Part shown: in pieces, positions 25,278-41,376 of the stretch
Layout: each line of letters starts with the position of its first letter
Numbering within the stretch: position 1 is the stretch's first letter
Assembly: GCA_039798445.1 (NCBI GenBank)
Contig: JBDKFZ010000012.1
Location: 2,407-66,406, forward strand
Direction of reading: 5' to 3'
DNA: 64,000 nucleotides
DNA from: Candidatus Parcubacteria bacterium
Lineage (GTDB): Bacteria > Patescibacteriota > Minisyncoccia > Phycocordibacterales > EsbW-18
Notes under the pieces: generated by a model
What the model was told of the DNA's origin: nothing
Seen by the model: the letters and a program-made list of their open reading frames with translations, nothing else
Database searches by the model: none
Program-made: the position numbers and the translations under genes

Positions 25278-25486
25278 AGTGCCTTCCTCAACGAAAAAAG
25301 CCGCCCCGGAGGACGGCTCTTTCCGAAAAGAAAGATGCCTTATTATAGCAGGGCTACTTTTTTTGTCAATAGCACCCCACAAGAAGCTATTTTGGTCAAG
25401 TCTTGCAACCACCAGACAGCCTAATGGAGCCGTTTTATGGCCATGTTATACTTATTTTGCTTATAAGCCCCCTAAGACTATCTTTT

Positions 25487-26092
25487 ATGACAGCTACCCC
25501 CTACTCAGCCCGCCAGTTCACCCTTCCGGAGGTTTCCGGTATCTCTCCCAAGACATTTGAGACCCATATCAAGCTCTACGAAGGCTATGTAAAACAGGCC
25601 AATGTCGTTTTGGGCAAGATCGAGGAGTATTCCAAGGATTCTGAGGCAAATGCCTATGCCTTGGGTGAGCTCCAGCGACGCTTTGCCTTCGAATTCGATG
25701 GTATGCGAAACCACGAATACTACTTTGGCGCTCTTGAGGGTGGTCCAAAAGCCCTCCCCACAGACAGTGCTCTCGCCCAAGCAATCACCGAAACTTGGGG
25801 CAGCGTTGATGCCTTCATGGCCCGATTCAAGGCTATCGCCCTTACCCGCGGCATCGGCTGGGCGATGCTCTACCATGATCCAACCGCCAAGCGTCTTTTG
25901 ACCCAGTGGGTCGACGAACAGCACTTGGGCCACCTCACCGGCCTTTCCCCTATCGTCACCTTGGACATGTGGGAACACTCATATCTTTTGGATTACGCTC
26001 CTGCCGACAAGGCTAAATACGCTGCAGCATATCTCGATGCTCTCAACTGGGAGACGGTAGCTCAGTGGTACGAGGAAGCTTCGGCACAATAA
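25487..26092 (+). CDS. superoxide dismutase, Fe/Mn family
   Basis: DMWEHSYLLDY motif, FEFDGMRNHEYYF, GWAMLY. The ATG giving MTATPYSARQF is at 25487; the ORF track begins at an upstream TTG. Confidence 0.9.
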   Translation: MTATPYSARQFTLPEVSGISPKTFETHIKLYEGYVKQANVVLGKIEEYSKDSEANAYALGELQRRFAFEFDGMRNHEYYFGALEGGPKALPTDSALAQAITETWGSVDAFMARFKAIALTRGIGWAMLYHDPTAKRLLTQWVDEQHLGHLTGLSPIVTLDMWEHSYLLDYAPADKAKYAAAYLDALNWETVAQWYEEASAQ

Positions 26093-26201
26093 GTGGTCAC
26101 ACTTTCGCTGCGTGGTCCGTGTTTTGTCCTCGCAAGCTCGGAAAAACCCGGATCCACTTCGCTCTGCGCCATACATTTGGAGTTTTCTAATTGCCAATTG
26201 C
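26093..26201 (+). repeat. ~110-bp repeat element A1 (inverted copy A2 at 39437..39548)
   Basis: The reverse complement of 26093..26201 aligns to 39437..39548 with about 88% identity, including a shared terminal motif gcaattggcaatt. Fills the convergent sod / comEC intergenic region and abuts the comEC stop codon. Confidence 0.85.
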
Positions 26202-27641
26202 TTATTGCTTCTTACTGAATAGTACCCAGCATCCGATTACCACATACAGACCAACAAGCACCCACACGGACATCACTCCCACATCCACCAACATCGACGG
26301 AAAGCTGTCAGCGATTTTGACGATCCAAAAGACGTACGCACCCACTGCTTCGATGAGAATTGAAAATGGTAGAGCGACGAACGCGCCGAAGAATCCTGCA
26401 ACGCCTGCCGCCAATGAACCAATCATAAAAAGCGGCATCGTTGGGAGCACCACGAGATTTGCCGGGAGTGTGAGGAGATTCGTCATTCCCGATTGATATA
26501 AGAGGATAGGAGTCACGGCGGTCTGCGCGCCGAGCGTCGTTCCGAGCGTCTCGCGCAATCCGCCCGTCTCGGGAACCCACGTCAGATGTTTGGCATACAG
26601 CGGCGCGATAGAAACAAGCCCCCATGTGGCCAAGAAAGAGAGTTGGAACGATGGATCGTACAGAAGGATATATGGAACATGAAAAATCATGAGGCACCCC
26701 GCCAACATGAGCGAACGGGTCACGTTGTAGCGCCGCTTCACCACGCGCGCGAGCACAGTGAGCCCGGCCATAATGCCCGCACGGATAGCCGTTGATGAGG
26801 CTCCGGCGATCATGATGTAAACCACAATGCCGACAATGCTCCCCAACGAGCCGACAACTGTTGAAAAGGAGCTGAACATAGTGCGGACAAAGTCTCCCGC
26901 CATGGTGATGTTGTAGCCCGAGACCACGATGATGTGGATCAACCCCGCGATGCGGAATGCCTCCTCGTCATCTTGAGACAAAGCACCTTCAACACCAAGC
27001 ACAACACCCGAAGCTAACCCCGCCGAAGGTTCTGATACGCTTCGCTCGATGCTCTCAACGAACGAATGTTTTACTTTGATAAAGAACGCGCGGATTGGAT
27101 TTCCTTGGTCAGCTTCAATAAGCGTCGCGCTCCCCCGCTTGATCACATGGAATATCCCCTTTCGAGCCAAGAAGCTCGGATAATCGAACGTGCGTCCCAA
27201 ATCGGTTTCGAATGCTTCAGGTAATTCGAGCTTTCCTTCGACCATCACTTTGTCGCCATAGGAGAATATTGGATATGACGGAACAGAAACCGAGATGTCT
27301 TCCCTCCCCACATCAACCAGTATCTTCTGCCCTTTCGGACTCATCTGCGGGTCATCGCTGATGATGCCCTCGAGCGTTATTGACTCGCCGATGCGTTCTA
27401 TCACCATCGGATCGCCTGCAAAAAGCCGCGAATGGTACGAGCGGGCGATGCCAAGTCCAAAGCACATGAGAAATATCGCGATGCAGACGAGCGCTCTTTT
27501 CTCTGACCTGAACATCAAAATGGATGCGATGCCGACAAGCACGGCCTCGGCGCCATATTCCCAACCCACATCCCAAAGAAACTGAAGCGCTACACCCCCA
27601 AGGAATCCCCAGAATCCTGCATGAACAAAAGCAGAGCGCAT
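26202..27641 (-). CDS. comEC: competence protein ComEC/Rec2 membrane channel (N-terminal OB-like domain plus competence domain, no MBL domain)
   Basis: About 480 aa with many TM helices: LIHIIVVSGYNITMAG, FQLSFLATWGLVS. The ATG (MRSAFVHAGFWGFLGG) is at 27641; the ORF-track start 27689 is a TTG inside repeat B2. Confidence 0.8.
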   Translation of the reverse strand: MRSAFVHAGFWGFLGGVALQFLWDVGWEYGAEAVLVGIASILMFRSEKRALVCIAIFLMCFGLGIARSYHSRLFAGDPMVIERIGESITLEGIISDDPQMSPKGQKILVDVGREDISVSVPSYPIFSYGDKVMVEGKLELPEAFETDLGRTFDYPSFLARKGIFHVIKRGSATLIEADQGNPIRAFFIKVKHSFVESIERSVSEPSAGLASGVVLGVEGALSQDDEEAFRIAGLIHIIVVSGYNITMAGDFVRTMFSSFSTVVGSLGSIVGIVVYIMIAGASSTAIRAGIMAGLTVLARVVKRRYNVTRSLMLAGCLMIFHVPYILLYDPSFQLSFLATWGLVSIAPLYAKHLTWVPETGGLRETLGTTLGAQTAVTPILLYQSGMTNLLTLPANLVVLPTMPLFMIGSLAAGVAGFFGAFVALPFSILIEAVGAYVFWIVKIADSFPSMLVDVGVMSVWVLVGLYVVIGCWVLFSKKQ

Positions 27642-27680
27642 GGCATGACCATACGCTCTGACCCATGAAAAGAATTTAAA

Positions 27681-27789
27681 GCGAAGCAACCTGTCCCTCC
27701 AAGGAGCCTACGGAGCGCGACTGGCGCGAGTCGAGCGGCGAGCTAGCAAGCGAGACCGCGTGCTCCTTGGAGGGAGCAGGGAGCGGAGC
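27681..27789 (+). repeat. GC-rich ~110-bp palindromic repeat element, copy B2 (copy B1 at 1359..1467)
   Basis: Near-identical to B1. Lies between the mscL stop and the comEC start. Confidence 0.8.
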
Positions 27790-27790
27790 T

Positions 27791-28084
27791 TTACCCTTCC
27801 TTCTTCATATCCAACCTATCAAGCTTGAGGCCTTTGAAACCAAAGTAGATGACGGCTGCGATGATGAGGAAGTCGATAATCGATGCCACGAAGCTTCCGA
27901 GCAATACCGGTCCAATCATCATGTCCGCAAGTCCGCCGATGTTACCAAACAGCATTCCGATGAGAGGATTGATGACGTCAGTGACGAACGATGTAACGAC
28001 TTTTGATACTGCACCACCGAGGATAAAACCAATTGCCAATCCGATGACTCCCTGCTCTCTCACGAATTGTATGAATCCTGTCAT
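27791..28084 (-). CDS. mscL: large-conductance mechanosensitive channel
   Basis: MTGFIQFVREQGVIGLAIGFILGGAVSKVVTSFVTDVINPLIG... Confidence 0.9.
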   Translation of the reverse strand: MTGFIQFVREQGVIGLAIGFILGGAVSKVVTSFVTDVINPLIGMLFGNIGGLADMMIGPVLLGSFVASIIDFLIIAAVIYFGFKGLKLDRLDMKKEG

Positions 28085-28088
28085 AAAA

Positions 28089-28511
28089 TTATTTATTTAA
28101 ATGTTCATCCATCGCCTCGTTCGCAAGCTCATCGGCCGCACCATTCTCCTCACGCATCACATGAACGAATGAGATGCTTGGGAACTTGGCGATGAGCGTG
28201 CCAACTTTGGCAAATTGGAGTTTGAGTCCAGCGTCTTTTACTTTGTATTCTTTTCGAAGCTGTTTGATTACGAGCTCGCTGTCCATGCGGACTTCAACAT
28301 GATTCTCCTTTCTCCCCTCTTGTGGAGCAAGGGTGTCCAACTCGCCAAGCGCGCGGATGAGCGCTTCGTACTCGGCCTGATTGTTGGTTGTCTCACCGAT
28401 GTACGCTTTGCCCGTCTTGATGACAGCGCCATCCTGCTGAATAACAAAACCGATGCCCGACGGCCCCGGATTACCTCTCGCTCCCCCGTCTGTGTTTACG
28501 ATAAATTTCAT
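28089..28511 (-). CDS. rnhA: ribonuclease HI
   Basis: MKFIVNTDGGARGNPGPSGIGFVI...AEYEALIRAL...VHVMREENGAADELAN. ATG at 28511; the ORF track extends upstream to 28661 through GC-rich DNA. Confidence 0.85.
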   Translation of the reverse strand: MKFIVNTDGGARGNPGPSGIGFVIQQDGAVIKTGKAYIGETTNNQAEYEALIRALGELDTLAPQEGRKENHVEVRMDSELVIKQLRKEYKVKDAGLKLQFAKVGTLIAKFPSISFVHVMREENGAADELANEAMDEHLNK

Positions 28512-28519
28512 GTGCCATG

Positions 28520-28530
28520 AGTATACCAAA
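28520..28530 (-). promoter_or_regulatory. extended -10 box TGGTATACT about 8 nt upstream of the rnhA ATG (possible leaderless transcript)
   Basis: Minus strand reads tttGGTATACTcatggcacATG. Confidence 0.35.
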
Positions 28531-28578
28531 CGAAACCCGCCCGCCAGCCTCAAGTTGAGGGTGGCGGGACGGTGGGGT

Positions 28579-28881
28579 TCACGCGTGAAGCATGAATGTG
28601 TCGGTGGAGATCGACTTCTCCGGCGAAACGTAGTGGTACTGGGACTGCTTGAGCTTCCCACGTTTCACCAGCCGACTGAGCGCAGAATTGACTTCGAACG
28701 CTCTGATGAAATACGGCTTGTGCTCGAGCTCGTCGGGCCAGGAAGAGAACTTGACCCTCCGGACGATGCTGCGCCGATGGGTTCGCGAATCCTCGGCGGG
28801 CAAGTCACGAGGGGCGACGTCCATGACCAGGATCTCGACAGCCTTCCGTCGCTTCTCCAACCAGCGCTTGATGAAGTTCAT
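28579..28881 (-). CDS. hypothetical small basic protein (100 aa) in a GC-rich island
   Basis: ORF in roughly 60% GC DNA between rnhA and recJ. A 14-bp GC palindrome (cccgccagcctcaa g ttgagggtggcggg) lies just downstream. No domain recognised. Confidence 0.35.
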   Translation of the reverse strand: MNFIKRWLEKRRKAVEILVMDVAPRDLPAEDSRTHRRSIVRRVKFSSWPDELEHKPYFIRAFEVNSALSRLVKRGKLKQSQYHYVSPEKSISTDTFMLHA

Positions 28882-28938
28882 TGAAACCTCCGGAACAGGT
28901 GCCGACCATTCGGCGATTCTAGATATTGTATACGCCTT

Positions 28939-30591
28939 CTACGACAAAATATCAACGATACGCAATCTGATGCCTCGACGCTTTCCGAATGCATCTTCTT
29001 CGATATGTGCGAGAAGCGAGACCGTCTCCCCCGCTCTTACGCCCTTGAGCTTCTCCTCAGAAAAGAATTGGATCGCAGAAACAGCGCCATTATCACCCAA
29101 CGTAAGACGTGTGTGCTGTTTTTCTTTACCAAAAGGCTCTGCACCTGATACCAAACAATCTTTGAAAAGGAAGACCGGCTTCTTGTTGCCTGCACCAAAC
29201 GGTGCCATGCGCTGTACATCCATGTGCATCGTGTAATTCACATCAGAGAGTGCGAGTTCGGCATCGTGTTCAGGTATTTCTTCTTGTGCTATCGCAACAG
29301 CACGACCAAGCGCTTCGGAAAGCGATTCTTCGAGACGGACGATGTGCTGGACCGTCGTTGAAAATCCGCCCGAGTGTTTATGTCCGCCGTACTCAACAAA
29401 ACATTCTTTGGCTTCTGTCATGAGGAGCATGATGTCGACACCACCACCCGAACGACATGAGCCTTTGATCATTGTTGATTCGCCTTGGCCCCACACGAAT
29501 GCGGGGCGATTGTATGTTTCGGCGACCTTGGTGGCAGCGAGACCGAGCAGACCAGGACGCCAGTGTGTATTGCCGACGACGACCACTGACGGGATCTCTT
29601 CGCGCGAAGCGAGCATCGCATTAATTTCTTTTGTCATCGATGCAACAGCGCCTTTGCGGCTGTTGTTGACGCCCTCGAGATGTTCGGCAAGTAGGTCTGC
29701 TTCTTGCATCGTTGTTGCAGCAAGGAGTCGGAACGCGGCCTCGGGCTCGTCCATGCGCGATGCAGCGTTGATGCGCGGCGTGATGGTGAAAACCACATCA
29801 TCATCGGTGAGATATCGCTGACGGATTCGAGCACGATCACACAGTGCACGAATACCCGGACGCGGAGATTTGCGCAGCACCATGAGGCCGTAATGCGCGA
29901 GTGCGCGATTCTCACCAGTGAGCGCAACCATGTCGGAGAGCGTTGCAATGCCGACCATATCCAAAAGCCATTTTTCCCATCCAAATGGAATGTCGGCGAC
30001 GCGCGGGTCATTGTCGAAACGAAGCTGTGCGATCACCGCTTGGACGACTTTGTATGCAACACCGGCTCCACACAAAGATTTATTCGGATATTCATCTCCG
30101 ATCTTATTGGGATTCACGACGATACATTTTGGTGCGCCCTCCTCCCCCTCTTGGTGATGATCGATGACGATGACATCGATGCCTGCAGCCATGGCGCGAT
30201 CGATGCGAGTCGCGTCGCCCATTCCACAGTCAATAGTAATGAGAAGTTTCACGCCGTTGTCGATGCATTCGTCGACGACACGCTCGTTGAGACCGAATCC
30301 TTCGGTGTTGCGGTGTGGAATCGAGATGGAAAAATCCTTCGCTCCGAGCTTCGTGAGTGCGTCGTTCATCAAAACAGCTGAGGGGATTCCATCAGCGTCG
30401 AAATCGGTGAAGACTTTGATTTTCTCCCCTTCCCTCAGCGCTGTGATAATGCGCTCGACCACCTTGTCCATGTCAGACAAGAGCATCGGATCAAGGACAT
30501 GCTTTGCATAGTCAGGAAAAAGGAAGGTCTCGATGTCTTCCTCGGTGGTTATGCCCCGCAAAGCAAGGAGTTTTTTGAGCAGTTCGGTCAT
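28939..30591 (-). CDS. recJ: single-stranded-DNA-specific exonuclease RecJ
   Basis: DHH motifs DFDADGI, VIVIDHH, GGHKHSGGF. ATG (MTELLKKLLALRGI) at 30591. Confidence 0.9.
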   Translation of the reverse strand: MTELLKKLLALRGITTEEDIETFLFPDYAKHVLDPMLLSDMDKVVERIITALREGEKIKVFTDFDADGIPSAVLMNDALTKLGAKDFSISIPHRNTEGFGLNERVVDECIDNGVKLLITIDCGMGDATRIDRAMAAGIDVIVIDHHQEGEEGAPKCIVVNPNKIGDEYPNKSLCGAGVAYKVVQAVIAQLRFDNDPRVADIPFGWEKWLLDMVGIATLSDMVALTGENRALAHYGLMVLRKSPRPGIRALCDRARIRQRYLTDDDVVFTITPRINAASRMDEPEAAFRLLAATTMQEADLLAEHLEGVNNSRKGAVASMTKEINAMLASREEIPSVVVVGNTHWRPGLLGLAATKVAETYNRPAFVWGQGESTMIKGSCRSGGGVDIMLLMTEAKECFVEYGGHKHSGGFSTTVQHIVRLEESLSEALGRAVAIAQEEIPEHDAELALSDVNYTMHMDVQRMAPFGAGNKKPVFLFKDCLVSGAEPFGKEKQHTRLTLGDNGAVSAIQFFSEEKLKGVRAGETVSLLAHIEEDAFGKRRGIRLRIVDILS

Positions 30592-30620
30592 TGGGGTAGC
30601 GATACTATATACTATCAGCC

Positions 30621-31016
30621 ATGAATGACTGTATCTTCTGCAAAATAGCCTCAAAAGAGATCCCTGTTGACCTCGTCTATGAAGATGAACGTATTATCGC
30701 TTTTCTTGATATGAAGCCGATAAACCCCGGCCACACCCTCATTGTTCCCCGGGAGCACGTCGACCACTTCTTCGATATGTCATTACCTGTCTACCAGCAC
30801 GTATTTGATATGGCAAAAAAGATTGCTCCCAAACTAAAGGATGCCATGGGCTCAGCCCGAATAGGGGTTCTCATAGAAGGTCTTGATGTCCCACACGCCC
30901 ACGTGCATCTTATTCCGATAAATGGTGGAAGGGAGATAGACCACGAGCGGGCACGGATGGCCACACCCGAGGAGTTGAAAGAGACGACAGAGAAAATCAA
31001 ATCCGCTCTCCTATAA
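30621..31016 (+). CDS. HIT-family (histidine triad) protein
   Basis: CIFCKI..., VPHAHVHLIP histidine triad. Confidence 0.9.
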   Translation: MNDCIFCKIASKEIPVDLVYEDERIIAFLDMKPINPGHTLIVPREHVDHFFDMSLPVYQHVFDMAKKIAPKLKDAMGSARIGVLIEGLDVPHAHVHLIPINGGREIDHERARMATPEELKETTEKIKSALL

Positions 31017-31022
31017 AAACTA

Positions 31023-31052
31023 CGCCCCGCACGAATGTGCGGGGTTTGCTTC
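31023..31052 (+). terminator. rho-independent terminator after the HIT gene
   Basis: ccccgcacgaatgtgcgggg followed by tttgctt. Confidence 0.75.
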
Positions 31053-31068
31053 AGGGGAGCTGCGGAAA

Positions 31069-31407
31069 TCAGAGTCCTCCTTCGGCGTACGTGGAATCGT
31101 GAGTAGGAACCAGCTCGCAGAACATCTTCCCGAAGATCAGGATGCTGGTAGGAGGGAGCTCATCGCTCCACCACTCTGCCGCTTCCGTCTTCCCGACAGC
31201 ACGCAGAGCTTCCACCGCATCTCGGAGAAGAACACCGTAACCGTTCTGATTCTCCGGGGCGGGCTCACCACCGAACACCCCGAACTGAGGAGTAGTGGGG
31301 CCAGACTCCCCTACAGTGGGAAGAACGACACCGACCCAAGCCCTTCGGATCTCTTCCGGCGCTTGTCCAGCAGGCACTGAGATGATTTTAATCGCCATAG
31401 CGATCAC
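31069..31407 (-). CDS. hypothetical protein (112 aa) in a GC-rich island
   Basis: About 60% GC ORF between the HIT terminator and pgk. No recognisable domain. Confidence 0.4.
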   Translation of the reverse strand: MIAMAIKIISVPAGQAPEEIRRAWVGVVLPTVGESGPTTPQFGVFGGEPAPENQNGYGVLLRDAVEALRAVGKTEAAEWWSDELPPTSILIFGKMFCELVPTHDSTYAEGGL

Positions 31408-31448
31408 CTCCTTTCCGAGGTATTTCTAACACACCCATTGGTCAAACA

Positions 31449-32552
31449 CTAGGCTTCAAGCGCCGCCACCGCAGGAAGCGTTCCGTATGCAAAAAGATGG
31501 AGCATCGCACCACCGGCTTCTGAAACGAACGCAAATGCGCCGGTGGTGTCGATATCTTTGATGGATGCGAGTGTATCTCCCCCACCGATCACAACCTGCG
31601 CCTCACAATCCATGAGCATGTGCGCGAGCAGATGTGTTGATTCTCCGTATCCGCGTTCGTAATCGCCGAGCGGTCCGTTCCAGATGACTGTTTGTGCCTG
31701 CGCGATGAGCGCGCTGAGCTCGGCGAGGCTCTCAGTACCTGCGTCAACGATTGATTCATCTTTTTTCACCTCGGTGATGGGACCGACGCGCATGATGCCG
31801 TCGGGACCGATGATGCGTGCGTCGATTGGAAGTTTGATGCGCGCGTCGGCAGTGATGGCGTCCAAATCAGGGATGTTCTTCGATGCACTCACCGAGACAC
31901 CAATCTCCTCCCCTTTGTCTTCGAGCAACACGTTCGCAGAAACACCACCGGCGTACACGGTGTCGAATCGGTCAGTCATCTTGGCAATGAGTGGAAGCTT
32001 GGTCTCAGGCTTTGCTCCGCCGATGATTGCGAGTGACGGCGATGTAGGAGATGCAAACTTCGACAATCCCTCGTATTCGCGCTGGAACGAAAGACCCATA
32101 ACACTAGGCATAAGCTTGGGAACGCTCACGACTGAGGCATGTTCACGGTGAGCCGCCGTAAAATCATCATTCACATAGATATCTGCGAGCTCGGCGAGCT
32201 GTGCAGCAAATGCAGGATCGTTCTTCTCTTCTCCGGGATAACGACGGAGGTTTTCGGCAAGAACAACTTTGTCATTTCCTGTATATGAAAAAATGTCTTC
32301 GACAAAAACGACCGGTAGGTGTTTTGAAAGATAATCAGCGACCGGTTTGAGAGACGTGTCAGCGCCGTCCGAGTGGTGGCTCACCAAGATAATGCGTGCT
32401 CCGGCATTGATGAGAAAATCGATTGTCGAGACGCAGTCATCGATACGAACCGTATCGCGAATCGTTTCACCATCCATTGGCACGTTAAAAGGTGCTCGCA
32501 CGAGAACGCGCTTTCCTTTGATGTCACCAAGTGATGAGAGTCCTGAAGGCAT
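31449..32552 (-). CDS. pgk: phosphoglycerate kinase
   Basis: RAPFNVP, NLRRYPGEEKND, YVNDDFTAAHREHAS, and the C-terminal GGGD hinge. Confidence 0.9.
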   Translation of the reverse strand: MPSGLSSLGDIKGKRVLVRAPFNVPMDGETIRDTVRIDDCVSTIDFLINAGARIILVSHHSDGADTSLKPVADYLSKHLPVVFVEDIFSYTGNDKVVLAENLRRYPGEEKNDPAFAAQLAELADIYVNDDFTAAHREHASVVSVPKLMPSVMGLSFQREYEGLSKFASPTSPSLAIIGGAKPETKLPLIAKMTDRFDTVYAGGVSANVLLEDKGEEIGVSVSASKNIPDLDAITADARIKLPIDARIIGPDGIMRVGPITEVKKDESIVDAGTESLAELSALIAQAQTVIWNGPLGDYERGYGESTHLLAHMLMDCEAQVVIGGGDTLASIKDIDTTGAFAFVSEAGGAMLHLFAYGTLPAVAALEA

Positions 32553-32554
32553 AC

Positions 32555-33322
32555 CTATGCTTTATCGACTGACGCGATTATTGCCTTGAATTCTTTTGCA
32601 TCGACGCTCGCATGACCGACGAGGAATCCGTCGACGGTCCCCTCTTGCAAAAGCGACGCCGCGTTCTTTGATTCGACCGAACCGCCATAGAGCACACGGA
32701 CCGCTGTGCCCGGCTTTCGTCCGTACATGCTCACCAAGATTTTTTTAATAAAGAGCGTCGTCTCGTGAAGCGTCGACGGCGTCATCGCCTGATCGGCAGA
32801 CTTTCCGATTGCCCACACCGGCTCGTATGCAATAACGACCGACGCAAGCTTGGGACGCGTGATGCCTGTAAGCGATTCTCTAATCTGACTCTCAAGCGTC
32901 GTGAGGTAACCACCGCGCATGTCACGTTCGTTCTCACCAACGCAAACAACTGCGGTCAAACCGTGTTTGATGACGGTCTGCGCTTTGAGCGACACCAAGT
33001 GGCTCGTCTCCCCCGCTGCGCGCATCTCAGAGTGTCCGAGGATTACGTGCGACACACCAAGACTGCGGAGCGCGTACACGCTCGATGCACCGGTATGCTT
33101 TGGTTCTACATCCCAAAAAGCATCTTGTGCTCCAAGACGGATCGACGAAGAAACGTTTGATGCAAAAAGTCCGAGGAGAGGTGTTTGAGGACAAACAACA
33201 ACGTGCGTACGTCGTGCAGTACGAGCGGCGTTCTGACTGGCGCGGTAGAGTTCTTTCGCCTCTTTTGGAGAATCGATGTAAAGCTTCCAGTTACCGATGA
33301 CGAGTTTTTTGTTTTGGGCCAT
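32555..33322 (-). CDS. tpiA: triosephosphate isomerase
   Basis: MAQNKKLVIGNWKL, ILGHSEMR, AYEPVWAIGKS, YGGSV. ATG at 33322. Confidence 0.9.
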   Translation of the reverse strand: MAQNKKLVIGNWKLYIDSPKEAKELYRASQNAARTARRTHVVVCPQTPLLGLFASNVSSSIRLGAQDAFWDVEPKHTGASSVYALRSLGVSHVILGHSEMRAAGETSHLVSLKAQTVIKHGLTAVVCVGENERDMRGGYLTTLESQIRESLTGITRPKLASVVIAYEPVWAIGKSADQAMTPSTLHETTLFIKKILVSMYGRKPGTAVRVLYGGSVESKNAASLLQEGTVDGFLVGHASVDAKEFKAIIASVDKA

Positions 33323-33512
33323 ATAAAGAAAAGAGATGTCCCAATTGTAGCATGTGGCAACTTTCAACTTATTCCTTTTAAAATAAGGCTGGAGTGACTT
33401 TTAAGGGATGAAAAAACCTCGCATCCGCCGGTATGGCGAAGCGAGGCTCCCATCGAGACACCGATGGATGTGTTGGGCGGTATGCCCTCTGCAGACAGAG
33501 AACGTTTGGGCT

Positions 33513-34187
33513 TTAGAAGTGAGGGTCCATGTTGACCGGCAGGGTCCCGACGAAGCGCCACTCCTCTCCCCAAGATTCAGGGGAGCGACCCATATGAACG
33601 TACCAGTCATCCTTGTGGCAACAGCCGGCGAGGAAGCAGAAAACGCCCCCAACCTGCCACTGCGTGGCGTAATGTCGACCATCCCGGAAGAGAGGCTGGG
33701 ACGAAAATGCCTCCGCCAGGGCACGAGGATCGGGCGTGAGGCGGTTGGCACCATAAAGCTCGGCCACCTGAAGGGAACTGATGCGACCCTCCTGATAGTA
33801 CCCCGAGCTCGGCTCGATGATGCCGAGATCAACTTCTTCACCAAGACCCGTCGGAACGGCTTGGAGAACCTCGGGGTCGATGTGCTGGTGTCCCCCGATG
33901 GACTCGATGACTTCCCACGGAGCGAGACCACGATTGACCTGGATGTGCGATACGGTGGTGATGTCGCCACCCTCCACGTGCTTACGGACCACTGCCAGAA
34001 GCTCCGGAGTCAGGAGATCGGGTTGATGGTTCATAGCGTCCCGCAGTAAATCTGCGGGGAACCGCTCCGCCCGAACTGCAAGGTCAAGCCTTTCGAAGAG
34101 CTTCGCGATTTGAAAGCCACTTGCAATTTGAATACTCGGGGTCATCATCGTTCTCCTTTTGAGTGCTGTACCCAATATGGGATTCAT
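33513..34187 (-). CDS. hypothetical protein (224 aa) in a GC-rich island of about 58% GC
   Basis: Three long ORFs overlap here in different frames. The minus-strand frame has GC3-rich codons and a normal amino-acid composition, while the plus-strand ORF is Arg-rich like an antisense artifact. Confidence 0.45.
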   Translation of the reverse strand: MNPILGTALKRRTMMTPSIQIASGFQIAKLFERLDLAVRAERFPADLLRDAMNHQPDLLTPELLAVVRKHVEGGDITTVSHIQVNRGLAPWEVIESIGGHQHIDPEVLQAVPTGLGEEVDLGIIEPSSGYYQEGRISSLQVAELYGANRLTPDPRALAEAFSSQPLFRDGRHYATQWQVGGVFCFLAGCCHKDDWYVHMGRSPESWGEEWRFVGTLPVNMDPHF

Positions 34188-34293
34188 AGCTTCACCAGAA
34201 TGGTGAGTTGCTACTACGTAGTGCTCTTAAGATACATCCGCGTGCACTATGACAATTCTAGATGAATCTGTCAACAGATGATTTGATTCCCTC

Positions 34294-35709
34294 TTACTCA
34301 ACCTCTTCCCATTCAAGGAATGTAAACTCGTCCGATATTGTTGGTGTGAGTGGCGGTGGTGATGTAACAAGATCCGAGTCATAAATATTCACGCGGTTCT
34401 GGTATCCCGACACAACGTTCGAGCCCGATGTCCATTTGGTACCTTCACGCGCATTGGAGACGATCGTACCGTTCACGGTAAGCAAGGTGCGAAGATAGTT
34501 TGCACCTTCTGATGATGGATAGTAATTACGTCCGAAGTAACCATTTTGTGCGATGAAGATACCACTGAGGCTCATCGTGCTCGGAGAATTGAACGGAATG
34601 AGGATGGAACGGTCTGCAATGACGGTGAGACCATCGGCGCCGGTGTCGTCAGCATAGGTTATATTGCCGTTCAGGATGACGTCAGCGCGTGCGGAAGGGC
34701 TTATAATTTCATCTGCAGCGATAATCACTTTTTGATCGACGACTCCCTCAATCCACGTCTTTGCTTCGACAAAGATAACCGGACAATCCTCTGGAATAGT
34801 CACTGTCGTCTGACTTTGTGTGCTTGTAATCGTGTGATAGTCGCTGTGCCACTGTGTGCCAGTATCAACGTGCTGTGCATCCACAGCAGACGTGCCGGTT
34901 ACTCGCCATCGTGTGATGGTACCGTTGCCATTGAACCGTATACGCATACCGCGCTGGTCAGAATTGCTCGTCTCGTTGATATATAAACCTTGTGAGACAG
35001 CGAGTGCTTTGATCTGAGCAAGATCCGTCGTGATACCGGCAAAATCCACCTGCGGAAGCGGATACTGCCACAATGCACTCCCCGACCCTGAACCAAAGAC
35101 TCCCGTTGTCGTGGCGGTCGGACTGCACCCAAACGAACTTGTACATGACCATGTTGAGACAGCGCTCGTCACAAGCGAATCGTTGGTACCGTCCATACGA
35201 ATACCGCCGTTACTATGATAATTACCACTGATTTGACGATCGGAACCCGCCCACACGTTGCTGTTGATGATGTATGCATACGATGCAACCGACGGCCGTG
35301 CGTAGCGGGCATACACCGTCCGGCGCAGTGTTGGATCCTCATCCGTCCATCCTGTTGATGTGATTGAGATAGTGCTCGTCTGTCCACAGAATTCCTCACT
35401 ATCAACGTTGAGCTCAAACGTACCCACAACCCCGCTCTCCGGATCGCTATACGGAACCTGCTGTGGTCCGGGTTGTCCGGTTCCATTCGTAAGATCGTTC
35501 GGAAAATGCGCGAGACGCCATTTATAGTAATCAACACCCGCCTCTGCAATCTGAAGTGCACGCTCGCGAGTTTCTTTTTTTACTTGGCTCTTGGTCTGAA
35601 GAAAAACAAATCCCACAAGCCCACCAAGAATCGTGAGGAACACGGTGCCGAACACGACAACCGAGATAACGATGTATCCTCGATGCTTGGAGTGATCGGT
35701 CATACTCAC
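34294..35709 (-). CDS. PilX-like pilus assembly / minor pilin-associated protein (N-terminal hydrophobic anchor, Ser/Thr-rich ectodomain)
   Basis: N-terminus HRGYIVISVVVFGTVFLTILGGLVGFVF resembles PilX_N. ATGA overlap with the upstream prepilin gene suggests translational coupling within the pilus cluster. Confidence 0.5.
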   Translation of the reverse strand: MSMTDHSKHRGYIVISVVVFGTVFLTILGGLVGFVFLQTKSQVKKETRERALQIAEAGVDYYKWRLAHFPNDLTNGTGQPGPQQVPYSDPESGVVGTFELNVDSEEFCGQTSTISITSTGWTDEDPTLRRTVYARYARPSVASYAYIINSNVWAGSDRQISGNYHSNGGIRMDGTNDSLVTSAVSTWSCTSSFGCSPTATTTGVFGSGSGSALWQYPLPQVDFAGITTDLAQIKALAVSQGLYINETSNSDQRGMRIRFNGNGTITRWRVTGTSAVDAQHVDTGTQWHSDYHTITSTQSQTTVTIPEDCPVIFVEAKTWIEGVVDQKVIIAADEIISPSARADVILNGNITYADDTGADGLTVIADRSILIPFNSPSTMSLSGIFIAQNGYFGRNYYPSSEGANYLRTLLTVNGTIVSNAREGTKWTSGSNVVSGYQNRVNIYDSDLVTSPPPLTPTISDEFTFLEWEEVE

Positions 35710-36314
35710 AGATTGATTTTAAGGTTACGAATTGCAGCGCTCGAACGGAGCACATATTCGTTCGGCAACGTCTCAGGGTTCACATTGACGACGAGACTCA
35801 CCTTCACAAAGACCGCAGGAGTAACGTTCGTATACGACGTGAGTTCTGCACCCGCACTATTAAAGTATTCAAAAATGGGAACGTTCTGCTCGACATTGCG
35901 CACATTCTCCGAAACAACACTCACTATCCCATTCGCCTCATTGTAGACTGCAGGCGAACCAACAGGATTAGTGATGCTTTTCATAAACGATGTCCCGTCG
36001 AGATAGAAGCGAACAAGCTCGGCATCGTTATCCCTATCAAGGTCAGTATAGATTGCAACAGTTGTCGATCCGATTGTAATGATGGGATAGGCACCCGTCT
36101 CCGAATACCGCGCTTCGCGGATATCGCGAACCATCTGCTCGACACCACGACGTGCATTCTCGACTGCGATTGCTTGCTCCATCGCATATCTATTTCCGCG
36201 GTACAACATGACAATCGAGCTCACAACCGCCGTGCTGATAATCATGAAGATAGCGAGCGTGGTAATCGCCTCAATAAGCGTGAAGCCTCGACGATTGTTC
36301 GTTGTGAAATACAT
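35706..36314 (-). CDS. type IV prepilin-like protein (minor pilin / pseudopilin)
   Basis: Class III signal MYFTTNNRRG|FTLIEAITTLAIFMIISTAVV, with the conserved Gly, Phe+1 and Glu+5. Confidence 0.85.
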   Translation of the reverse strand: MYFTTNNRRGFTLIEAITTLAIFMIISTAVVSSIVMLYRGNRYAMEQAIAVENARRGVEQMVRDIREARYSETGAYPIITIGSTTVAIYTDLDRDNDAELVRFYLDGTSFMKSITNPVGSPAVYNEANGIVSVVSENVRNVEQNVPIFEYFNSAGAELTSYTNVTPAVFVKVSLVVNVNPETLPNEYVLRSSAAIRNLKINL

Positions 36315-36317
36315 ATT

Positions 36318-38141
36318 CTAAGGATTGAGGAGGACCGAATACGTTGTTGCTCCCGAAACCGAGAGCCCCGTGATGTTTTGTGTCGTAAATCCACTTGCCG
36401 ATACATCCAATGTGTATGAAGTTGCAGATAGACCACGGAAGAACGACTGTCCACATGCCGATGAGTCTATGGTTTCATCATACCCCGTTCTACTGAGACG
36501 CACTGATGCGTTTTCGAGCGGGACATTCTGGTCATTCGTGACATACACAAGAAGCGAGTGCGCAGTCGCAGGTGCAAAGATGAAATCAACAATCTGTGAG
36601 ATTGCTGGATTGAGCCCAAATGGCTGGAACGGACAAGCCTCAACAACCGAAAGGCTGCTTTCAGCGGATCCTTTGGTGATGAGGTAGGTGTCCCACTCGA
36701 CGTCTTCAATCGCAAGCGTTCCATCAACTCCGGTAGTGTGTGAATCGGTATATTTGTAGATAGGTGCACCTCCACCATCGGTGCCGATTGTCTTTGCTCC
36801 CTGCATCGTAAAGGTGGTTGTTGGACGTGGAATCGGACCCTCATCATAGGTAATCGTCCACGAACGAAGCGTTGGCGTAACCCATGGGTCACTGCTCTGC
36901 ACATCGCCGACCAGCGCAAGACTGGGATACTCAATAACCGACAAACCAGAAAGATCGACCGGTGATGAACTGAATCCCGAAGAATTGCCGGGAAGATCGC
37001 TGTCAGAAACCAGCACTGATGACGTCGCCGTTGTAGCGAGTAGCGAAACACGCACAGTCGTGCTTGCCATGGCAATCGCATCAAATGCCAACTCATGCCA
37101 TGTATTCAGATATACAGGAGCAACCGATGTGGCAGTCACAGAACCAGTAGAAAAATATGTTCCTGGGGCTCCCGCGAGCGTCACCTCCCCTCCCGACACA
37201 ACAACATCCTCTGCCTCCGCAACCAACGATGAATCAGCAAATGAGTCTGTCCACGTTGCGGAACGAGTCTCGTCAAATGAACGCAATGTGATGTCAGAAA
37301 GCTCGTCGATACGGAACGTTGAAGATGTGATGGTGTCCCCAATAACAGTGAGCGTCCCGGGCATAGGGTTCGGATTCGACGGCGAGGCCAGATAGGTGCG
37401 GTCTGTGCTGTGTCCGGCTTTCGTCGTTTCAATCTGATACGCAGTCGATGTTGGTGCACCAGGAAAATAAGCGACGCCGTCATTGCTCGAAAACGTGGAG
37501 ATGCTGATGTTCGGCGACACGACGGTATTCGTTATTGTTATCTCCGCATTGGATACCGGTGCACCTCCGGCATCAACAACATTCACCACAAGTGTTCCTC
37601 CCCCATCCAAAGTCTCAATGCCTTTTGGAACGACGTTAGTTATGAGCGACACATCGCGGTCGGTGCCACGGAATTGCCATGAGACGCTTACCTTGGCGAT
37701 TTTAAAATCTGCCTGAATCCCATTGGTATCAGAGGGCCCTGTACCGTCCGCAGCATGATCGATGAACTGAACAAATGTACGACGCGTGTAAACAATATTA
37801 TTGAGAGAAATGCTTTCTTCGGGTGGAATAGAACCTGCGGGAATGCCACCCAACACCGCGACGCTGTTGTACGGGAGACTTCGTATATATTCAATCTGTT
37901 CATTGGCGAGCGCAATCGCACCAGTCTTTGCCTTTCCCAATCCCACTGACACCACCGCAAGCCGGATGACACCAAAAAGACCGATGAAAATGAGCAACAT
38001 GAGCGCCGTACCGACCACTGCATCAATCAGAGTAGCCCCGCGCTGGGGCGTAGAAGCACGAAATCCGAATCTCGAAATCCGAAACAAATTCAAAGCTCGA
38101 AATCCTAAATCCAAAACAGGTTGTAAGTTCGTTTTGAACAT
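36318..38141 (-). CDS. large pilin-like protein (607 aa) with prepilin-type N-terminus and a Thr/Ser-rich ectodomain; candidate tip adhesin or major subunit
   Basis: ...QRG|ATLIDAVVGTALMLLIFIGLFGVI prepilin-like segment. The annotated ATG (38141) lies in the loop of a large palindromic repeat cluster, so the true start is uncertain. Confidence 0.65.
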   Translation of the reverse strand: MFKTNLQPVLDLGFRALNLFRISRFGFRASTPQRGATLIDAVVGTALMLLIFIGLFGVIRLAVVSVGLGKAKTGAIALANEQIEYIRSLPYNSVAVLGGIPAGSIPPEESISLNNIVYTRRTFVQFIDHAADGTGPSDTNGIQADFKIAKVSVSWQFRGTDRDVSLITNVVPKGIETLDGGGTLVVNVVDAGGAPVSNAEITITNTVVSPNISISTFSSNDGVAYFPGAPTSTAYQIETTKAGHSTDRTYLASPSNPNPMPGTLTVIGDTITSSTFRIDELSDITLRSFDETRSATWTDSFADSSLVAEAEDVVVSGGEVTLAGAPGTYFSTGSVTATSVAPVYLNTWHELAFDAIAMASTTVRVSLLATTATSSVLVSDSDLPGNSSGFSSSPVDLSGLSVIEYPSLALVGDVQSSDPWVTPTLRSWTITYDEGPIPRPTTTFTMQGAKTIGTDGGGAPIYKYTDSHTTGVDGTLAIEDVEWDTYLITKGSAESSLSVVEACPFQPFGLNPAISQIVDFIFAPATAHSLLVYVTNDQNVPLENASVRLSRTGYDETIDSSACGQSFFRGLSATSYTLDVSASGFTTQNITGLSVSGATTYSVLLNP

Positions 38142-38200
38142 TTGGATTTAGGGTTTAGTGCTTCTTTCGGATTTCGTGCTTCGTGCTTCGGATTTCATCC
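38037..38200. repeat. palindromic repeat cluster (direct and inverted copies of cgaaatccgaa, tandem cgtgctt x2) spanning the pilin start and the pilC stop
   Basis: gaagcacgaaatccgaatctcgaaatccgaaac ... ttggatttagggtttagtgcttctttcggatttcgtgcttcgtgcttcggatttc. Two ~55-nt arms, imperfectly complementary, around a ~26-nt loop that contains the pilin ATG. Confidence 0.7.
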
Positions 38201-38201
38201 C

Positions 38202-39410
38202 CTAGATACCGCTTGAGAGCGAATAAATCGGCGTAATCATGGAGACGGCAAAGAACCCGACCGCAGCACCAATGATGACCATGAGGAATGGTTCGATGAT
38301 CGTCGACATATCTTTTGTCTTCTGATCGACCTCACTCTCGAAGAAGACCGCAATTTGGAGAAGCATCGCCGGGAGCTTTCCAGTCTCTTCACCCACCGCT
38401 ATCATCTCGTTCACCATCGGTGGAAAGAGGCGCTCGTAGCGTGAAAAAACGGCTGAGACCGCTGCACCTTTCTGGATTTCTTGTTCGGCCTCAACAAATG
38501 CTTCTTTGTAATACGAGTTCTGGAGGACATCCCCCGTGATCGATATCGCAGCAACCATGTCGACTCCTGATGAAAGAAGTGACGAGAACGTGCGCGACAT
38601 ACGTGCCGCATTGGTTTCTTTAACCAAGTTGCCGATGATTGGCATGCGGAGCATGACGAACTCGAATCCCCGTTTGCCCCTGCGCGTACGCGAAAGCATG
38701 ATGGCCCCAACGACAAGAAGGATAAGCCCTGCGATAACCGCAATCGGATTTGCAGTGAGCAAATCACTCGATGAGATAACGAGCTGTGTCGTTGCGGGAA
38801 GTTTGACGTTGAGTTCAACGAACGTCGCAGTGAGCGTCGGAACGACGAACATAAGCATGAGGATACCAATGATAATCATCACCGAAAGGATGATGATTGG
38901 ATACATCATCGCGCCACGTATCTTCCGGCGCAGTGCGTAACTGCGATCCATTTGTTCGGCGACGATACGGAGCGAGTCACCGAGCTTACCAGATTCTTCA
39001 CCAGCACGGACCATCGATACAAAGAGCGGCGAGAAAGTCTCTGGAAACTTGGCAAGGGCTTCTGAAAGCGCCGAACCTTTTTCGACATATGCGCTCAGGG
39101 CAACGAGAATCTTCTTGAATTTCTTGCTCTTCGTCTGACGCTCCATAACGGTGAGCGCGCGAGAGAGTGCAAGGCCCGCGTCGACCATCGCCCCAAGGTT
39201 CTTGGCAAAAGTGATCTTGTCGGCGAGCTTTACACCACCAAATGAGATATTGAAACGCGAACCCACGCTTTCCTTATTAGACTCTTCAGCAGTGATGAGC
39301 GTCTTCCCTTCTGTTTTGAGATCGCGCGCAAGCGCGAATTGATCATCCGCTTCGCGGATCCCCTCTTCAACTTCGCCGCTTGATGCGACTGATTTATACG
39401 AGAACTTCAT
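38202..39410 (-). CDS. pilC: type IV pilus assembly platform protein PilC (GspF family, two T2SSF repeats)
   Basis: Three TM segments, duplicated F-domain signatures. ATG MKFSYKSVASSG at 39410; the ORF track starts at 39464. Confidence 0.9.
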   Translation of the reverse strand: MKFSYKSVASSGEVEEGIREADDQFALARDLKTEGKTLITAEESNKESVGSRFNISFGGVKLADKITFAKNLGAMVDAGLALSRALTVMERQTKSKKFKKILVALSAYVEKGSALSEALAKFPETFSPLFVSMVRAGEESGKLGDSLRIVAEQMDRSYALRRKIRGAMMYPIIILSVMIIIGILMLMFVVPTLTATFVELNVKLPATTQLVISSSDLLTANPIAVIAGLILLVVGAIMLSRTRRGKRGFEFVMLRMPIIGNLVKETNAARMSRTFSSLLSSGVDMVAAISITGDVLQNSYYKEAFVEAEQEIQKGAAVSAVFSRYERLFPPMVNEMIAVGEETGKLPAMLLQIAVFFESEVDQKTKDMSTIIEPFLMVIIGAAVGFFAVSMITPIYSLSSGI

Positions 39411-39436
39411 TACGAAAATTGTAGCACGAGAAGCTA

Positions 39437-39548
39437 TTAGCAATTGGCAATTAAAAAACTCCAAATGTATGGCGCAGAGCGGAGTGGATCCGGGTTTTTC
39501 CGAGCCTGCGAGGACAAAACGCGGACCACGCAGCGAAGGTCATACCGC
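39437..39548 (-). repeat. repeat element A2 (inverted copy of A1) in the pilB-pilC intergenic region
   Basis: Aligns to the reverse complement of 26093..26201. Begins with gcaattggcaatt and ends near ggaccacgcagcgaagg. Confidence 0.85.
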
Positions 39549-39555: not shown

Positions 39556-41310
39556 TTATTCCGTAACCACACGCAATACCTCTTCGAGCGTTGTGATGCC
39601 TTGTGCTGCTTTGAACACGCCGTCTTCGAGCATCGTCATCATGCCTTCGCTCTTTCCCTGTGCTTCGATAGCATCTCCAGTCGCACCTTTCATAATGAGC
39701 TCTTTGATCGTTGGTGTGATGCGCAACACTTCGTGAATACCAATGCGCCCCTTGTACCCATCTTCAACATCAGAACCTCCCTTTGGGCGATAGAAAGTGA
39801 CATCATCCCATTTCGCTCCCGTCTTGATGATCTTTTCAGACACGAGAAAACCGAGCATGCGGTCGAGATCGACACTCTTCCCGAGCGTCGCAAGCTCCGC
39901 TTTTGAAAGCGTGTATTCTTCTTTCTTCTCTTTTGCGAGAACGCGCACAAGTCGCTGACCGATTATCACCTTGATCGTCGAGACCAAGAGGAAGGGTTCA
40001 ACGCTCATGTCGAGCATACGAGGAATGGCACCAGAAGCCGAGTTCGTGTGAAGCGTCGAGAGCACCAAGTGACCAGTGAGCGATGCGTTCACCGCGAGTG
40101 ATGCGGTCTCGGTGTCACGAATTTCACCCACCATGATGATGTCTGGGTCTTGGCGGACGAGCGAACGAAGACCATTGCCGAACGTCATCCCAATCTCGGG
40201 CTTCACCTGTGTCTGATTGATGCGTGGCATCTGATACTCAACCGGATCTTCAATGGTCGAGATGTTAACGTCCGGCGTGTTGAGGATATCGAGCACGGTG
40301 TAGAGCGTTGTTGTTTTACCCGAACCAGTTGGTCCTGTCGTGAGAATCATTCCTGTCGACTGTTTCGTCGCCCAGTGAATCGCCTCGAGGCCTTCGCCAT
40401 GAAAACCAAGTGATTCCAGTGTGTATCCTCCCCCACCTTCACGAAGCACACGCATAACGGTTTTCTCACCGTAGTATGTCGGCAATGTCGACACACGGAA
40501 GCTCACTTTCTCACCGTCGAGATCAATCTTGAATCGACCGTCTTGTGGTAAGCGCTTCTCATCAAGCTTGAGGCTCGAAAGCACTTTGATGCGCGCAACA
40601 ATGCCCGGCGCCGCCTGCTTGGGCAATGTCATCGCGTCGTGCAACAGACCGTCGATACGATAACGGACCAAAAGCTCGCGCTCCATCGGTTCGATGTGAA
40701 TGTCAGATGCACCTTGGACAACGGCGTGTTTGATAAGCGTGTCGACGATGCGGACAATCGGGAGATCCTCGGCCATCTTCTTGAGATCCTCACTCGACGC
40801 TTCGGAGCCATCACCTTCGGTAATTGCAACAAGCGATGCCGCCTCGGTGCTAATAATATCGCCGAATTCTGCCTTGAGGCTCTTTTGATATTGAAGAAGG
40901 GCACGCTTCACCGACTCGGCATCAGTAAGTCGCGGAAGGATCGAAAGACCAGTCTTCTTTTTGACGAAGTCGATTGCCTGCAAGTCGCCAACATCGAGCA
41001 TCGCGACTTCAAGGCCGTGCGAACTCTTGCCGTAGGCGACGATATTGTGCGTGCGAGCGATCGGTTCAGGGATGAGCGAGAGGACCGCGAACTCAACCTT
41101 CTGCTCTTTGAGATCGACGAATGGAATACCGATGACGTGTGCCTTGGCACGACGGACATCGTCTTCGGACAGCGCACCTTCGGAAACGAGCGCTTCTTCG
41201 AGCGTTGTGTCGTTTTTCTCCGCAGCTTTCTCGATATCAGCGAGCTTCGCTTCGGTTACGAGGCGTGCATCGATGAGAAATTGTTTGAACTGTTCGGTAT
41301 CAACGCGCAT
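39556..41310 (-). CDS. pilB: type IV pilus assembly ATPase PilB (GspE family)
   Basis: Walker A GPTGSGKTTT, Asp box, His box, and N-terminal GSPII-like domain. ATG MRVDTEQFKQF at 41310. Confidence 0.9.
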   Translation of the reverse strand: MRVDTEQFKQFLIDARLVTEAKLADIEKAAEKNDTTLEEALVSEGALSEDDVRRAKAHVIGIPFVDLKEQKVEFAVLSLIPEPIARTHNIVAYGKSSHGLEVAMLDVGDLQAIDFVKKKTGLSILPRLTDAESVKRALLQYQKSLKAEFGDIISTEAASLVAITEGDGSEASSEDLKKMAEDLPIVRIVDTLIKHAVVQGASDIHIEPMERELLVRYRIDGLLHDAMTLPKQAAPGIVARIKVLSSLKLDEKRLPQDGRFKIDLDGEKVSFRVSTLPTYYGEKTVMRVLREGGGGYTLESLGFHGEGLEAIHWATKQSTGMILTTGPTGSGKTTTLYTVLDILNTPDVNISTIEDPVEYQMPRINQTQVKPEIGMTFGNGLRSLVRQDPDIIMVGEIRDTETASLAVNASLTGHLVLSTLHTNSASGAIPRMLDMSVEPFLLVSTIKVIIGQRLVRVLAKEKKEEYTLSKAELATLGKSVDLDRMLGFLVSEKIIKTGAKWDDVTFYRPKGGSDVEDGYKGRIGIHEVLRITPTIKELIMKGATGDAIEAQGKSEGMMTMLEDGVFKAAQGITTLEEVLRVVTE

Positions 41311-41376
41311 ATCTTTGCGCTTTATTGTATCAGTTCTACAAAAAAGAGAACGTGAATAAAAACGAGATATGAAAAA

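Follow-up and report, generated by a model that had tools for sequence, protein, structure and literature searches.

Element A at the sod–comEC and pilB–pilC junctions

The window analyzed here, a 64,000-nt stretch of contig JBDKFZ010000012.1 from a Candidatus Parcubacteria bacterium, carries two inverted copies (A1 and A2) of a noncoding repeat that we call element A. A1 lies between the convergent genes sod and comEC and A2 occupies the 145-nt spacer between pilB and pilC; the Pfam annotation of the flanking genes confirmed both positions given in the initial annotation of this DNA. The features at the two junctions, with strand, are as follows.

25403..26092 (+): sod (Fe/Mn superoxide dismutase), by Pfam; upstream of A1.
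26093..26182 (+): core of copy A1, GTGGTCACACTTTCGC ... GCGCCATACATTTGGAG; directly 3′ of the sod stop codon (26090-26092); covariance model score 115.8 bits.
26112..26157 (+): A1 hairpin, with arms GTGGTCCGTGTTTTGTCC and GGAAAAACCCGGATCCAC, a 10-nt loop, one U.C mismatch and two bulges.
26183..26212 (+): variable 3′ tail of A1, with the 7-nt periodic tract AATTGCC AATTGCT TATTGCT (26189-26209); overlaps the comEC stop codon (26202-26204).
26202..27689 (-): comEC (Competence, DUF4131), by Pfam; convergent on A1.
38202..39410 (-): pilC (T2SSF), by Pfam; downstream of A2.
39418..39426 (-): extended -10-like box TGCTACAAT, 7 nt upstream of the pilC ATG (39410); a putative promoter element from sequence comparison.
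39429..39458 (-): variable 3′ tail of A2, with the heptamer tract AATTGCC AATTGCT AATAGCT (39432-39452).
39459..39548 (-): core of copy A2, 7 nt past the pilB stop codon (39556-39558) and sharing the orientation of pilB and pilC; covariance model score 113.5 bits.
39484..39529 (-): A2 hairpin, with arms as in A1; the mismatch position is C.C.
39556..41418 (-): pilB (T2SSE, MshEN), by Pfam; upstream of A2.

A repeat search of the window returned A1 and A2 as its sole long inverted pair (26101-26212 and 39429-39540), 112 nt in length and 94% complementary, with 13,216 nt between the arms. BLASTN of A2 against the window gave 105/112 identical positions with an E value of 1e-44, which excludes chance likeness, and the longest uninterrupted identical runs between the copies measure 27 and 23 nt. 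The inverted repeats of about 110 bp reported initially are thus real, although the identity of about 88% stated for them was too low. Their outer ends, 26093 and 39548, coincide with the 5′ end of the element A core (GTGGT/GCGGT), while the similarity reaches about 10 nt beyond the inner limits first given, to 26212 and 39429. The description of a 13.2-kb segment ‘separating’ pilB from pilC is misleading: the two genes are adjacent, and the 13.2 kb spans the distance between the repeat arms. Since repeat B2 overlaps the TTG listed as the start of comEC, the gene probably begins at the ATG near 27655.

Element A is an imperfect hairpin with conserved flanks

The anatomy of element A was derived from an alignment of 22 copies, on which all counts of variation below are based. 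The core of about 90 nt comprises a 17-bp imperfect hairpin with conserved flanks. Its 5′ part reads GTGGT, three variable bases (usually ATG) and AC, and is followed by a near-invariant stretch of about 70 nt, YTTCGCTGCG-GTGGTCCGTGTTTTGTCC-TCGCARGCTC-GGAAAAACCCGGATCCAC-TYCGCTCTGCGCCA. The 3′ tail, starting with TAKATTTSGAG, is AT-rich and freely variable, and in about half of the copies it runs on into 7-nt periodic tracts of the kind seen in A1 and A2 (e.g. AATTGCC AATTGCT AATAGCT).

One fold is present in all 22 aligned copies: the stem has 17 bp, encloses a 10-nt loop and is interrupted by a U.C mismatch and by two bulges of one base each. All stem pairs are Watson–Crick, so the hairpin can form on either strand and as DNA or RNA; 14 of the 17 are invariant. 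The stem begins with GTGG, GTAG occurs at neither end, and similar motifs in direct orientation, CTTCGCTGCG on one side and CTCCGCTCTGCG on the other, flank the whole stem. The ends of the element, GTGGTATGAC... and ...ATTTGGAG, are neither inverted repeats of each other nor complementary. In a diverged copy, L112 (loci and contigs are cited by such numbers), one stem pair has undergone a compensatory change from G:C to A:U, and the U.C mismatch is also closed to U:A. Judged from the alignment, the covariation is consistent with a selected hairpin but falls short of proof.

Two further structural candidates did not hold up. An outer closing helix (UAUGGC/GUCAUA), predicted on the antisense strand, was rejected because variation of the 5′ ATG triplet is never compensated. 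Consensus scans for a promoter or terminator inside element A performed no better than on shuffled sequences, and the ‘-10’ sequence TGGTATGAC is not conserved across copies. Separately, the L112 copy (3714-3832, -) has a 20-nt GC palindrome, ATGCCTGCCGGCAGGCAGGC, inserted in its 3′ flank.

The core could in principle encode a small protein, as both window copies are spanned, on the antisense strand, by a frame that starts with ATG (MAQSGVDPGFSEPARTKRGPRSEG... and MAQSEVDPGFSELARTKHGPRSES...). This frame had been noted initially together with the remark that every difference between the copies is nonsynonymous, and both observations stand (G/E, P/L, R/H and G/S). Besides these replacements, the end of the frame differs from locus to locus because the frame runs into unrelated flanks, and the ATG, read on the sense strand, is mutated in 8/22 copies. 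We therefore consider a peptide product to have next to no chance of being real, and the early preference for an RNA or DNA function is supported.

Element A is a dispersed intergenic family in a narrow Patescibacteria clade

Public metagenome contigs were scanned with the 18-mer GGAAAAACCCGGATCCAC and species-representative genomes (one per species) with the 21-mer CCGYGTTTTGTCCTCGCARGC. The former scan gave 97 matches, most of them bare chance matches, and the full-length element was found on 10 contigs, all from sample Ga0172380. The latter gave 11 matches, none attributable to chance: 10 in the metagenome-assembled genome (MAG) JAUPUE01, labeled ‘Patescibacteria group bacterium’, and one in the MAG CAZMAP01, labeled Candidatus Saccharibacteria. 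A diverged copy is present in the MAG CAYHKK01 (L112). The search for the repeat elsewhere suggested in the initial annotation thus yielded further copies in one metagenome and three MAGs, amounting to 23 element A loci beyond the window pair's own.

Searches with nhmmer and a covariance model (R1, built from the 22 copies) recovered all copies at 92–120 bits. The same two methods found no further copy in about 427 kb of related DNA and no diverged copies in more distant relatives, and viral contigs gave no match to the element. These data indicate at least 10 copies per roughly megabase-sized genome, a size assumed for the group, within a narrow clade of Patescibacteria. Among named homologs, those nearest to pilC belong to Candidatus Campbellbacteria (61–64% identity); since the best named protein matches fall there, we infer that the host is a Patescibacterium near that group.

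All 24 element A loci are intergenic, and at seven of them the element begins within a few nucleotides of the upstream stop codon. The flanking genes are unrelated housekeeping genes (ABC-F, NDK, HlyD, MsrA, PyrD, GlyRS, DnaE, ThrRS, RF and MraY-like). Counted as distinct sites, the contexts are distributed as follows.

Sense, between co-directional genes: 7–8 sites.
Antisense, between co-directional genes: 2–3 sites.
Between convergent genes: 3–4 sites.
Between divergent genes: 2 sites.

A replication fork-trap (Ter-like) role was rejected: the GC skew is monotonic across the window, which places both copies on one replichore, and they lie there in opposite orientations. At L067, GTTTCACGTGAAAC, which presumably agrees at every position with the parS consensus core, occurs about 30 nt upstream of the element A copy (near 1100-1130).

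The core is far more conserved than neighboring synonymous sites

A1 is orthologous to the copy in L106 and A2 to that in L073. Across five orthologous pairs a 77-nt core is 93.5–100% identical, the window copies matching their orthologs at 74/77 positions (∼96%), and the mean pairwise identity over the 22 copies is 95%. At four-fold degenerate sites, by comparison, pilB and pilC of the window are 56–58% identical to their counterparts in Ga0172380, and comEC and sod are 64–77% identical to those in JAUPUE01. Within the element itself, the 5′ triplet and the 3′ tail diverge at about the neutral rate. The much stronger conservation of the core than of adjacent four-fold sites indicates that it is held by selection or homogenization and is not merely young.

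Some exchange between the two window copies may also have taken place. Their 46-nt tails are identical at 43/46 positions, as against 35/46 and 37/45 with their own orthologs, and the ACA and GG variants are common to A1 and A2 and unique among all copies. The closer resemblance of the tails to each other than to their orthologs hints at past gene conversion or homogenization between A1 and A2.

The inverted pair is not a programmed switch

A1 and A2 bracket the 13.2-kb comEC...pilC segment, and the initial annotation proposed that they invert it and thereby switch off pilC and the pilins by parting them from pilB. The size of the inverted repeat (112 nt, 94% identity, identical runs of 27 and 23 nt) is in favor of this idea, as is the 43/46 likeness of the tails, which suggests past recombination between the copies. 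However, the junctions are identical in independent assemblies: pilB-A-pilC is found in L001, an independent near-identical contig, and in L073, and sod-A-comEC is found in L106. The alternative orientation appeared in no assembly covering either junction, the comparison being at the level of assemblies.

The gene order likewise speaks against inversion. The order pilB-pilC-...-TIM-PGK-recJ is kept in L110, L116, L118, L121, L122, L124 and L128, with no copy in the stretch examined, and where the relatives' contigs are long enough it goes on to RNaseH-mscL-comEC on the same strand. Three related assemblies are without any element A within about 10 kb on either side of pilC. The sharing of this order by relatives that have no copy near pilC indicates that the orientation in the window is ancestral.

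Pfam identified no recombinase, invertase, integrase or transposase among the 19 open reading frames (ORFs) between and beside the arms (24.7–45.2 kb), 6 of the 19 having no Pfam match. Moreover, between A2 and the pilC start there is a conserved -10-like box of pilC itself (TGCTACAAT); it lies outside the repeat and is kept in relatives with and without element A, so pilC need not depend on pilB transcription. Finally, nothing distinguishes A1/A2 from the many other dispersed copies, and the outcome is essentially the one that the initial annotation had named as contrary to its idea, a common dispersed repeat with no sign of the other orientation.

Invertible DNA switches of the Hin/Gin/Fim type and other repeat-mediated inversions resemble the present arrangement in having inverted repeats that bracket surface-structure genes. 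Unlike those systems, element A has no adjacent recombinase that we could find, is not private to the locus and shows one orientation in all assemblies. We thus regard the proposed uncoupling of pilC and the pilins from pilB as unsupported and very unlikely, although a rare RecA-mediated inversion of the 13.2-kb segment is possible. The inverted placement of A1 and A2 around comEC...pilC is incidental.

Site turnover at the pilB–pilC spacer and elsewhere

The content of the pilB–pilC spacer is wholly different among close relatives, as listed here.

Window: element A and tail (145 nt in all).
L073: family B (a second repeat, described below) and element A.
L112, L118 and L121: a Y1_Tnp gene (195–211 aa) with the palindrome GAGGTGAAACCTC on its flanks; this palindrome is also dispersed in those genomes.
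L110: 91 nt, unrelated.
L114: 40 nt.
L124: 132 nt.
L128: 5 nt.
L116 and L122: extra genes.

The spacer is shortest in L128 (7266-7270), a relative whose PilC protein shows 96% identity. Its pilB and pilC are 5 nt apart (TAA-ACATA-ATG), and there is neither a leader nor a repeat nor the pilC -10-like box.

Other sites behave similarly. The yceI-side site has element A in L112 and family C in the window; the site that holds element A in L026 has a different insert in the window; and L107 has element A where L083, with the same flanks, has a short GC palindrome in place of the stem. In L083 (3324-3385, +) this palindrome, ACCCCCGCCATGGCGGGG, replaces the whole stem and the element A flanks are kept. 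Such turnover is the behavior of mobile or recombining intergenic cassettes and, together with the dispersed family, supports the other reading offered in the initial annotation, namely that A1 and A2 are copies of a mobile or structured element.

A classical miniature inverted-repeat transposable element (MITE), that is, an internally deleted DDE-type insertion sequence (IS) with terminal inverted repeats and target-site duplications that is mobilized by a full-length IS, would share with element A the size of about 100 nt, the intergenic dispersion and the presence/absence differences between species. The remaining evidence is contrary: the ends GTGGTATGAC... and ...ATTTGGAG are not inverted repeats, no direct duplication is visible beside any copy (the spacers of the relatives are entirely different and give no clean empty site for comparison), no IS with similar ends was encountered, and orthologous copies do not decay. 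A MITE origin therefore appears highly improbable.

Element A as a proposed REP/REPIN-like family

Taken together, we favor the reading that A1 and A2 belong to a lineage-specific family of intergenic hairpin repeats that are under constraint and resemble repetitive extragenic palindromes (REPs) and REPINs; we assign this reading a probability of roughly 60%. REPs are short, imperfect extragenic palindromes that recur through a genome, and a REPIN consists of two inverted REPs with a short spacer between them, which form one long hairpin of about 100 nt. REPINs have been described as non-autonomous elements that are replicated by single-copy REP-associated tyrosine transposases (RAYTs), inherited vertically and persistent for millions of years (PMC3337134; bioRxiv 10.1101/2022.05.22.493013). 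Element A resembles them in its size and hairpin shape, in lying between genes and in its long retention at orthologous sites, and RAYT-like Y1_Tnp genes with REPs of their own are common in its clade. Three different Y1_Tnp genes were found there, each flanked by its own dispersed REP, one of them in the spacer homologous to that of A2. Their positions are as follows.

L112 8929-9516, L118 9265-9900 and L121 572-1186: RAYT-like Y1_Tnp genes in the pilB–pilC spacer, flanked by GAGGTGAAACCTC, which is dispersed between genes in those genomes.
L126 1547-2134 and L127 366-962: RAYT-like Y1_Tnp genes flanked by their own short palindromes, GGCAAGGCGWCGCCTTGCC or CGAGGTGTTGCC.

In the mechanism that we propose, element A would be a non-autonomous hairpin that a sequence-specific protein recognizes, either in folded single-stranded DNA or in RNA. 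An HUH Y1 (RAYT-type) enzyme with its gene at another genomic location would be the likeliest candidate. An established copy of the element would give transcripts that read into it, here those of sod and pilB, a stable 3′ stem-loop.

There are also differences from REP/REPIN–RAYT systems. The conserved part of element A extends past the palindrome into asymmetric flanks, which makes the element directional, and it lacks the 5′ GTAG tetranucleotide of enterobacterial and pseudomonad REPs. The 5′ GTAG may be specific to particular RAYT groups.

Several observations weigh against the REP/REPIN-like assignment. A tblastn search with a Y1_Tnp of the clade over all element A loci found no Y1_Tnp or other transposase gene flanked by element A, and the two next-closest homologs each have a different REP; membership in the REPIN–RAYT class is therefore tentative. 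Transposase-driven spread alone fails to explain the ∼96% identity of old orthologous copies, which points to host-level selection or gene conversion. About 10 copies per MAG is at the low end for REP families, and no REP singlets (half-elements) of element A were found. The CAZMAP copy (L104) has two broken stem pairs, and the covariation support amounts to a single event, with 19/500 shuffles equaling the observed score. Lastly, the orthologous spacers are wholly different and offer no clean empty site from which boundaries or target duplications could be read.

In the main rival explanation, element A is a host-selected, cis-acting structured RNA in the 3′ untranslated region (UTR) of the upstream gene or in the intercistronic spacer, acting as a protein-dependent terminator or insulator, a block to 3′ exonucleases or a processing site, or else released as a 3′-UTR-derived small RNA, the copies being kept because they are locally useful. 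In support of this, the core is far more conserved than adjacent synonymous sites, copies often begin at the upstream stop codon and are located just before the -10 box of the next gene, sense copies between co-directional genes outnumber antisense ones (7–8 versus 2–3 sites), and L112 provides one compensatory stem change. On the other hand, some copies are antisense to both neighbors (L017/L101 and L079/L103), and others lie at divergent (L067 and L109) or convergent sites. The element has no T-run and no terminator or promoter consensus, its stem pairs are all Watson–Crick with no strand favored, and it is missing from the pilB–pilC spacer of several relatives. Rfam 15 at gathering thresholds detected only rRNA and tRNA in the window, and on the element one chance match of 9.9 bits at E values up to 10, so that neither copy matches a known RNA family, a point on which the initial annotation had suggested a search. 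The loops and the single-stranded flanks vary no more than the stem does, which suits recognition of the sequence by a protein better than it suits a simple stem with a stabilizing role. The RNA explanation accounts for the conservation better than the REP/REPIN-like reading and for the mixed orientations worse; in either of its two forms we consider it possible but rather doubtful.

The REP/REPIN-like reading also has to be set against other repeat families. Enterobacterial BIMEs and pneumococcal BOX elements are modular intergenic elements in which several repeat types occur in variable combinations. Element A is comparably modular: it is found alone, with heptamer tails, with terminator hairpins, with nested small GC palindromes (L112) or with family B beside it in the opposite orientation (L073 and L079). 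There is no sequence relationship to those families, however, and the modules of element A are specific to one Patescibacteria clade. IS200/IS605 elements insert without target duplication, and their subterminal hairpins and those of their non-autonomous derivatives (PATEs) resemble element A in being imperfect and having extrahelical bases. They differ in that each end of such an element has a hairpin of its own and the target is a defined tetra- or pentanucleotide, whereas element A has one hairpin and showed no conserved target sequence. Recognition of such hairpins on single-stranded DNA by a Y1 transposase has been described (PMC6006769). A search of one full-text library found no paper linking Patescibacteria or the candidate phyla radiation (CPR) to REP elements, RAYTs or MITEs. 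As a dispersed intergenic repeat, the element A family is of an ordinary kind, in an unusual host and with unusually strong conservation.

Other repeats and features of the window

Two further hairpin families were seen in the window. Family B (1360-1467 and 27682-27789, both -) is 108 nt long and 97% identical between the two copies, and forms a long GC-rich hairpin, CCCTGYTCCCTCCAAGGAGC...GCTCCTTGGAKGGACAGG; one copy lies 3′ of the 5S rRNA terminator and the other fills the mscL–comEC spacer. It is also present in L106, L079 and L073, the last having two copies, one of which abuts element A in the opposite orientation. Family C is a GC-rich hairpin repeat at 44340-44450 (+), downstream of a gene ending at 44344, and occurs again at L023 9619-9678. 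The short motifs CGCTTCG and CTTCGCT, considered as a recognition signal common to families A, B and C, proved only weakly enriched in intergenic DNA and are also present in ordinary terminators.

Heptamer tracts, consisting of three to four tandem AATTGCY, AATAGCY or similar units, are located at 1325-1352 (-), 26189-26209 (+), 39432-39452 (-), 44485-44505 (+) and ∼20240-20275 (-). In most cases a TGnTAnAnT-like -10 box follows closely, and only some 7 nt past the box comes an ATG (leaderless-like starts); two tracts instead overlap the 3′ ends of convergent genes (comEC and yceI). A role as -35 elements was rejected on account of the spacing to the -10 box, which is 14 or 21 nt and not 17, and of the two tracts over gene 3′ ends. 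A 50-nt imperfect inverted repeat made of CGAAATCC-like short repeats at 38059-38190 covers the start of a 607-aa CarboxypepD_reg ORF (36318-38141) and most of the 60-nt gap before the pilC 3′ end (38202).

The rRNA genes of the window (1552-5475, -) are ordered 23S, tRNA-Ile(GAT) (1724-1797) and 5S, and no 16S gene is present in the 64 kb. The 23S rRNA spans 3364 nt against a model of 2925 positions, implying an insertion of about 440 nt. At 8193-18000 and 46638-60310 (-) there are clusters of very large ORFs with dozens of common internal repeat units (families D1–D20). The large-ORF region of a related contig gave faint or weak matches to BNR, PD40 and Big_5; the clusters probably encode paralogous repeat-rich surface proteins.

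Implications for Patescibacteria genomes

For annotation, the A1/A2 pair is not to be taken as a switch by which type IV pili or competence would undergo phase variation. Several intergenic hairpin families occur in the clade (A, B, C and small REPs accompanied by RAYT-like genes), with turnover at hot spots that include the pilB–pilC spacer, and in the tiny, streamlined genomes of Patescibacteria the persistence of repeated DNA is unexpected.

More speculatively, element A may be no selfish DNA but a selectively maintained, protein-recognized noncoding module of ultra-small CPR genomes, either the REPIN partner of a domesticated Y1/RAYT or a new cis-acting signal; we hold this proposal tentatively and think it on the unlikely side. 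If it is true, function at the individual loci would account for the 70 nt kept at about 95–96% identity between species whose synonymous sites have nearly reached saturation. In its REPIN/domesticated Y1 form it would be the first such replicator–host system described in Patescibacteria, and in its cis-acting form element A would be an RNA or DNA signal placed at gene boundaries. Should the conservation of family A, which is far above neutral, reflect function, the family would offer an accessible case for studying the persistence or the use of such elements in reduced genomes.

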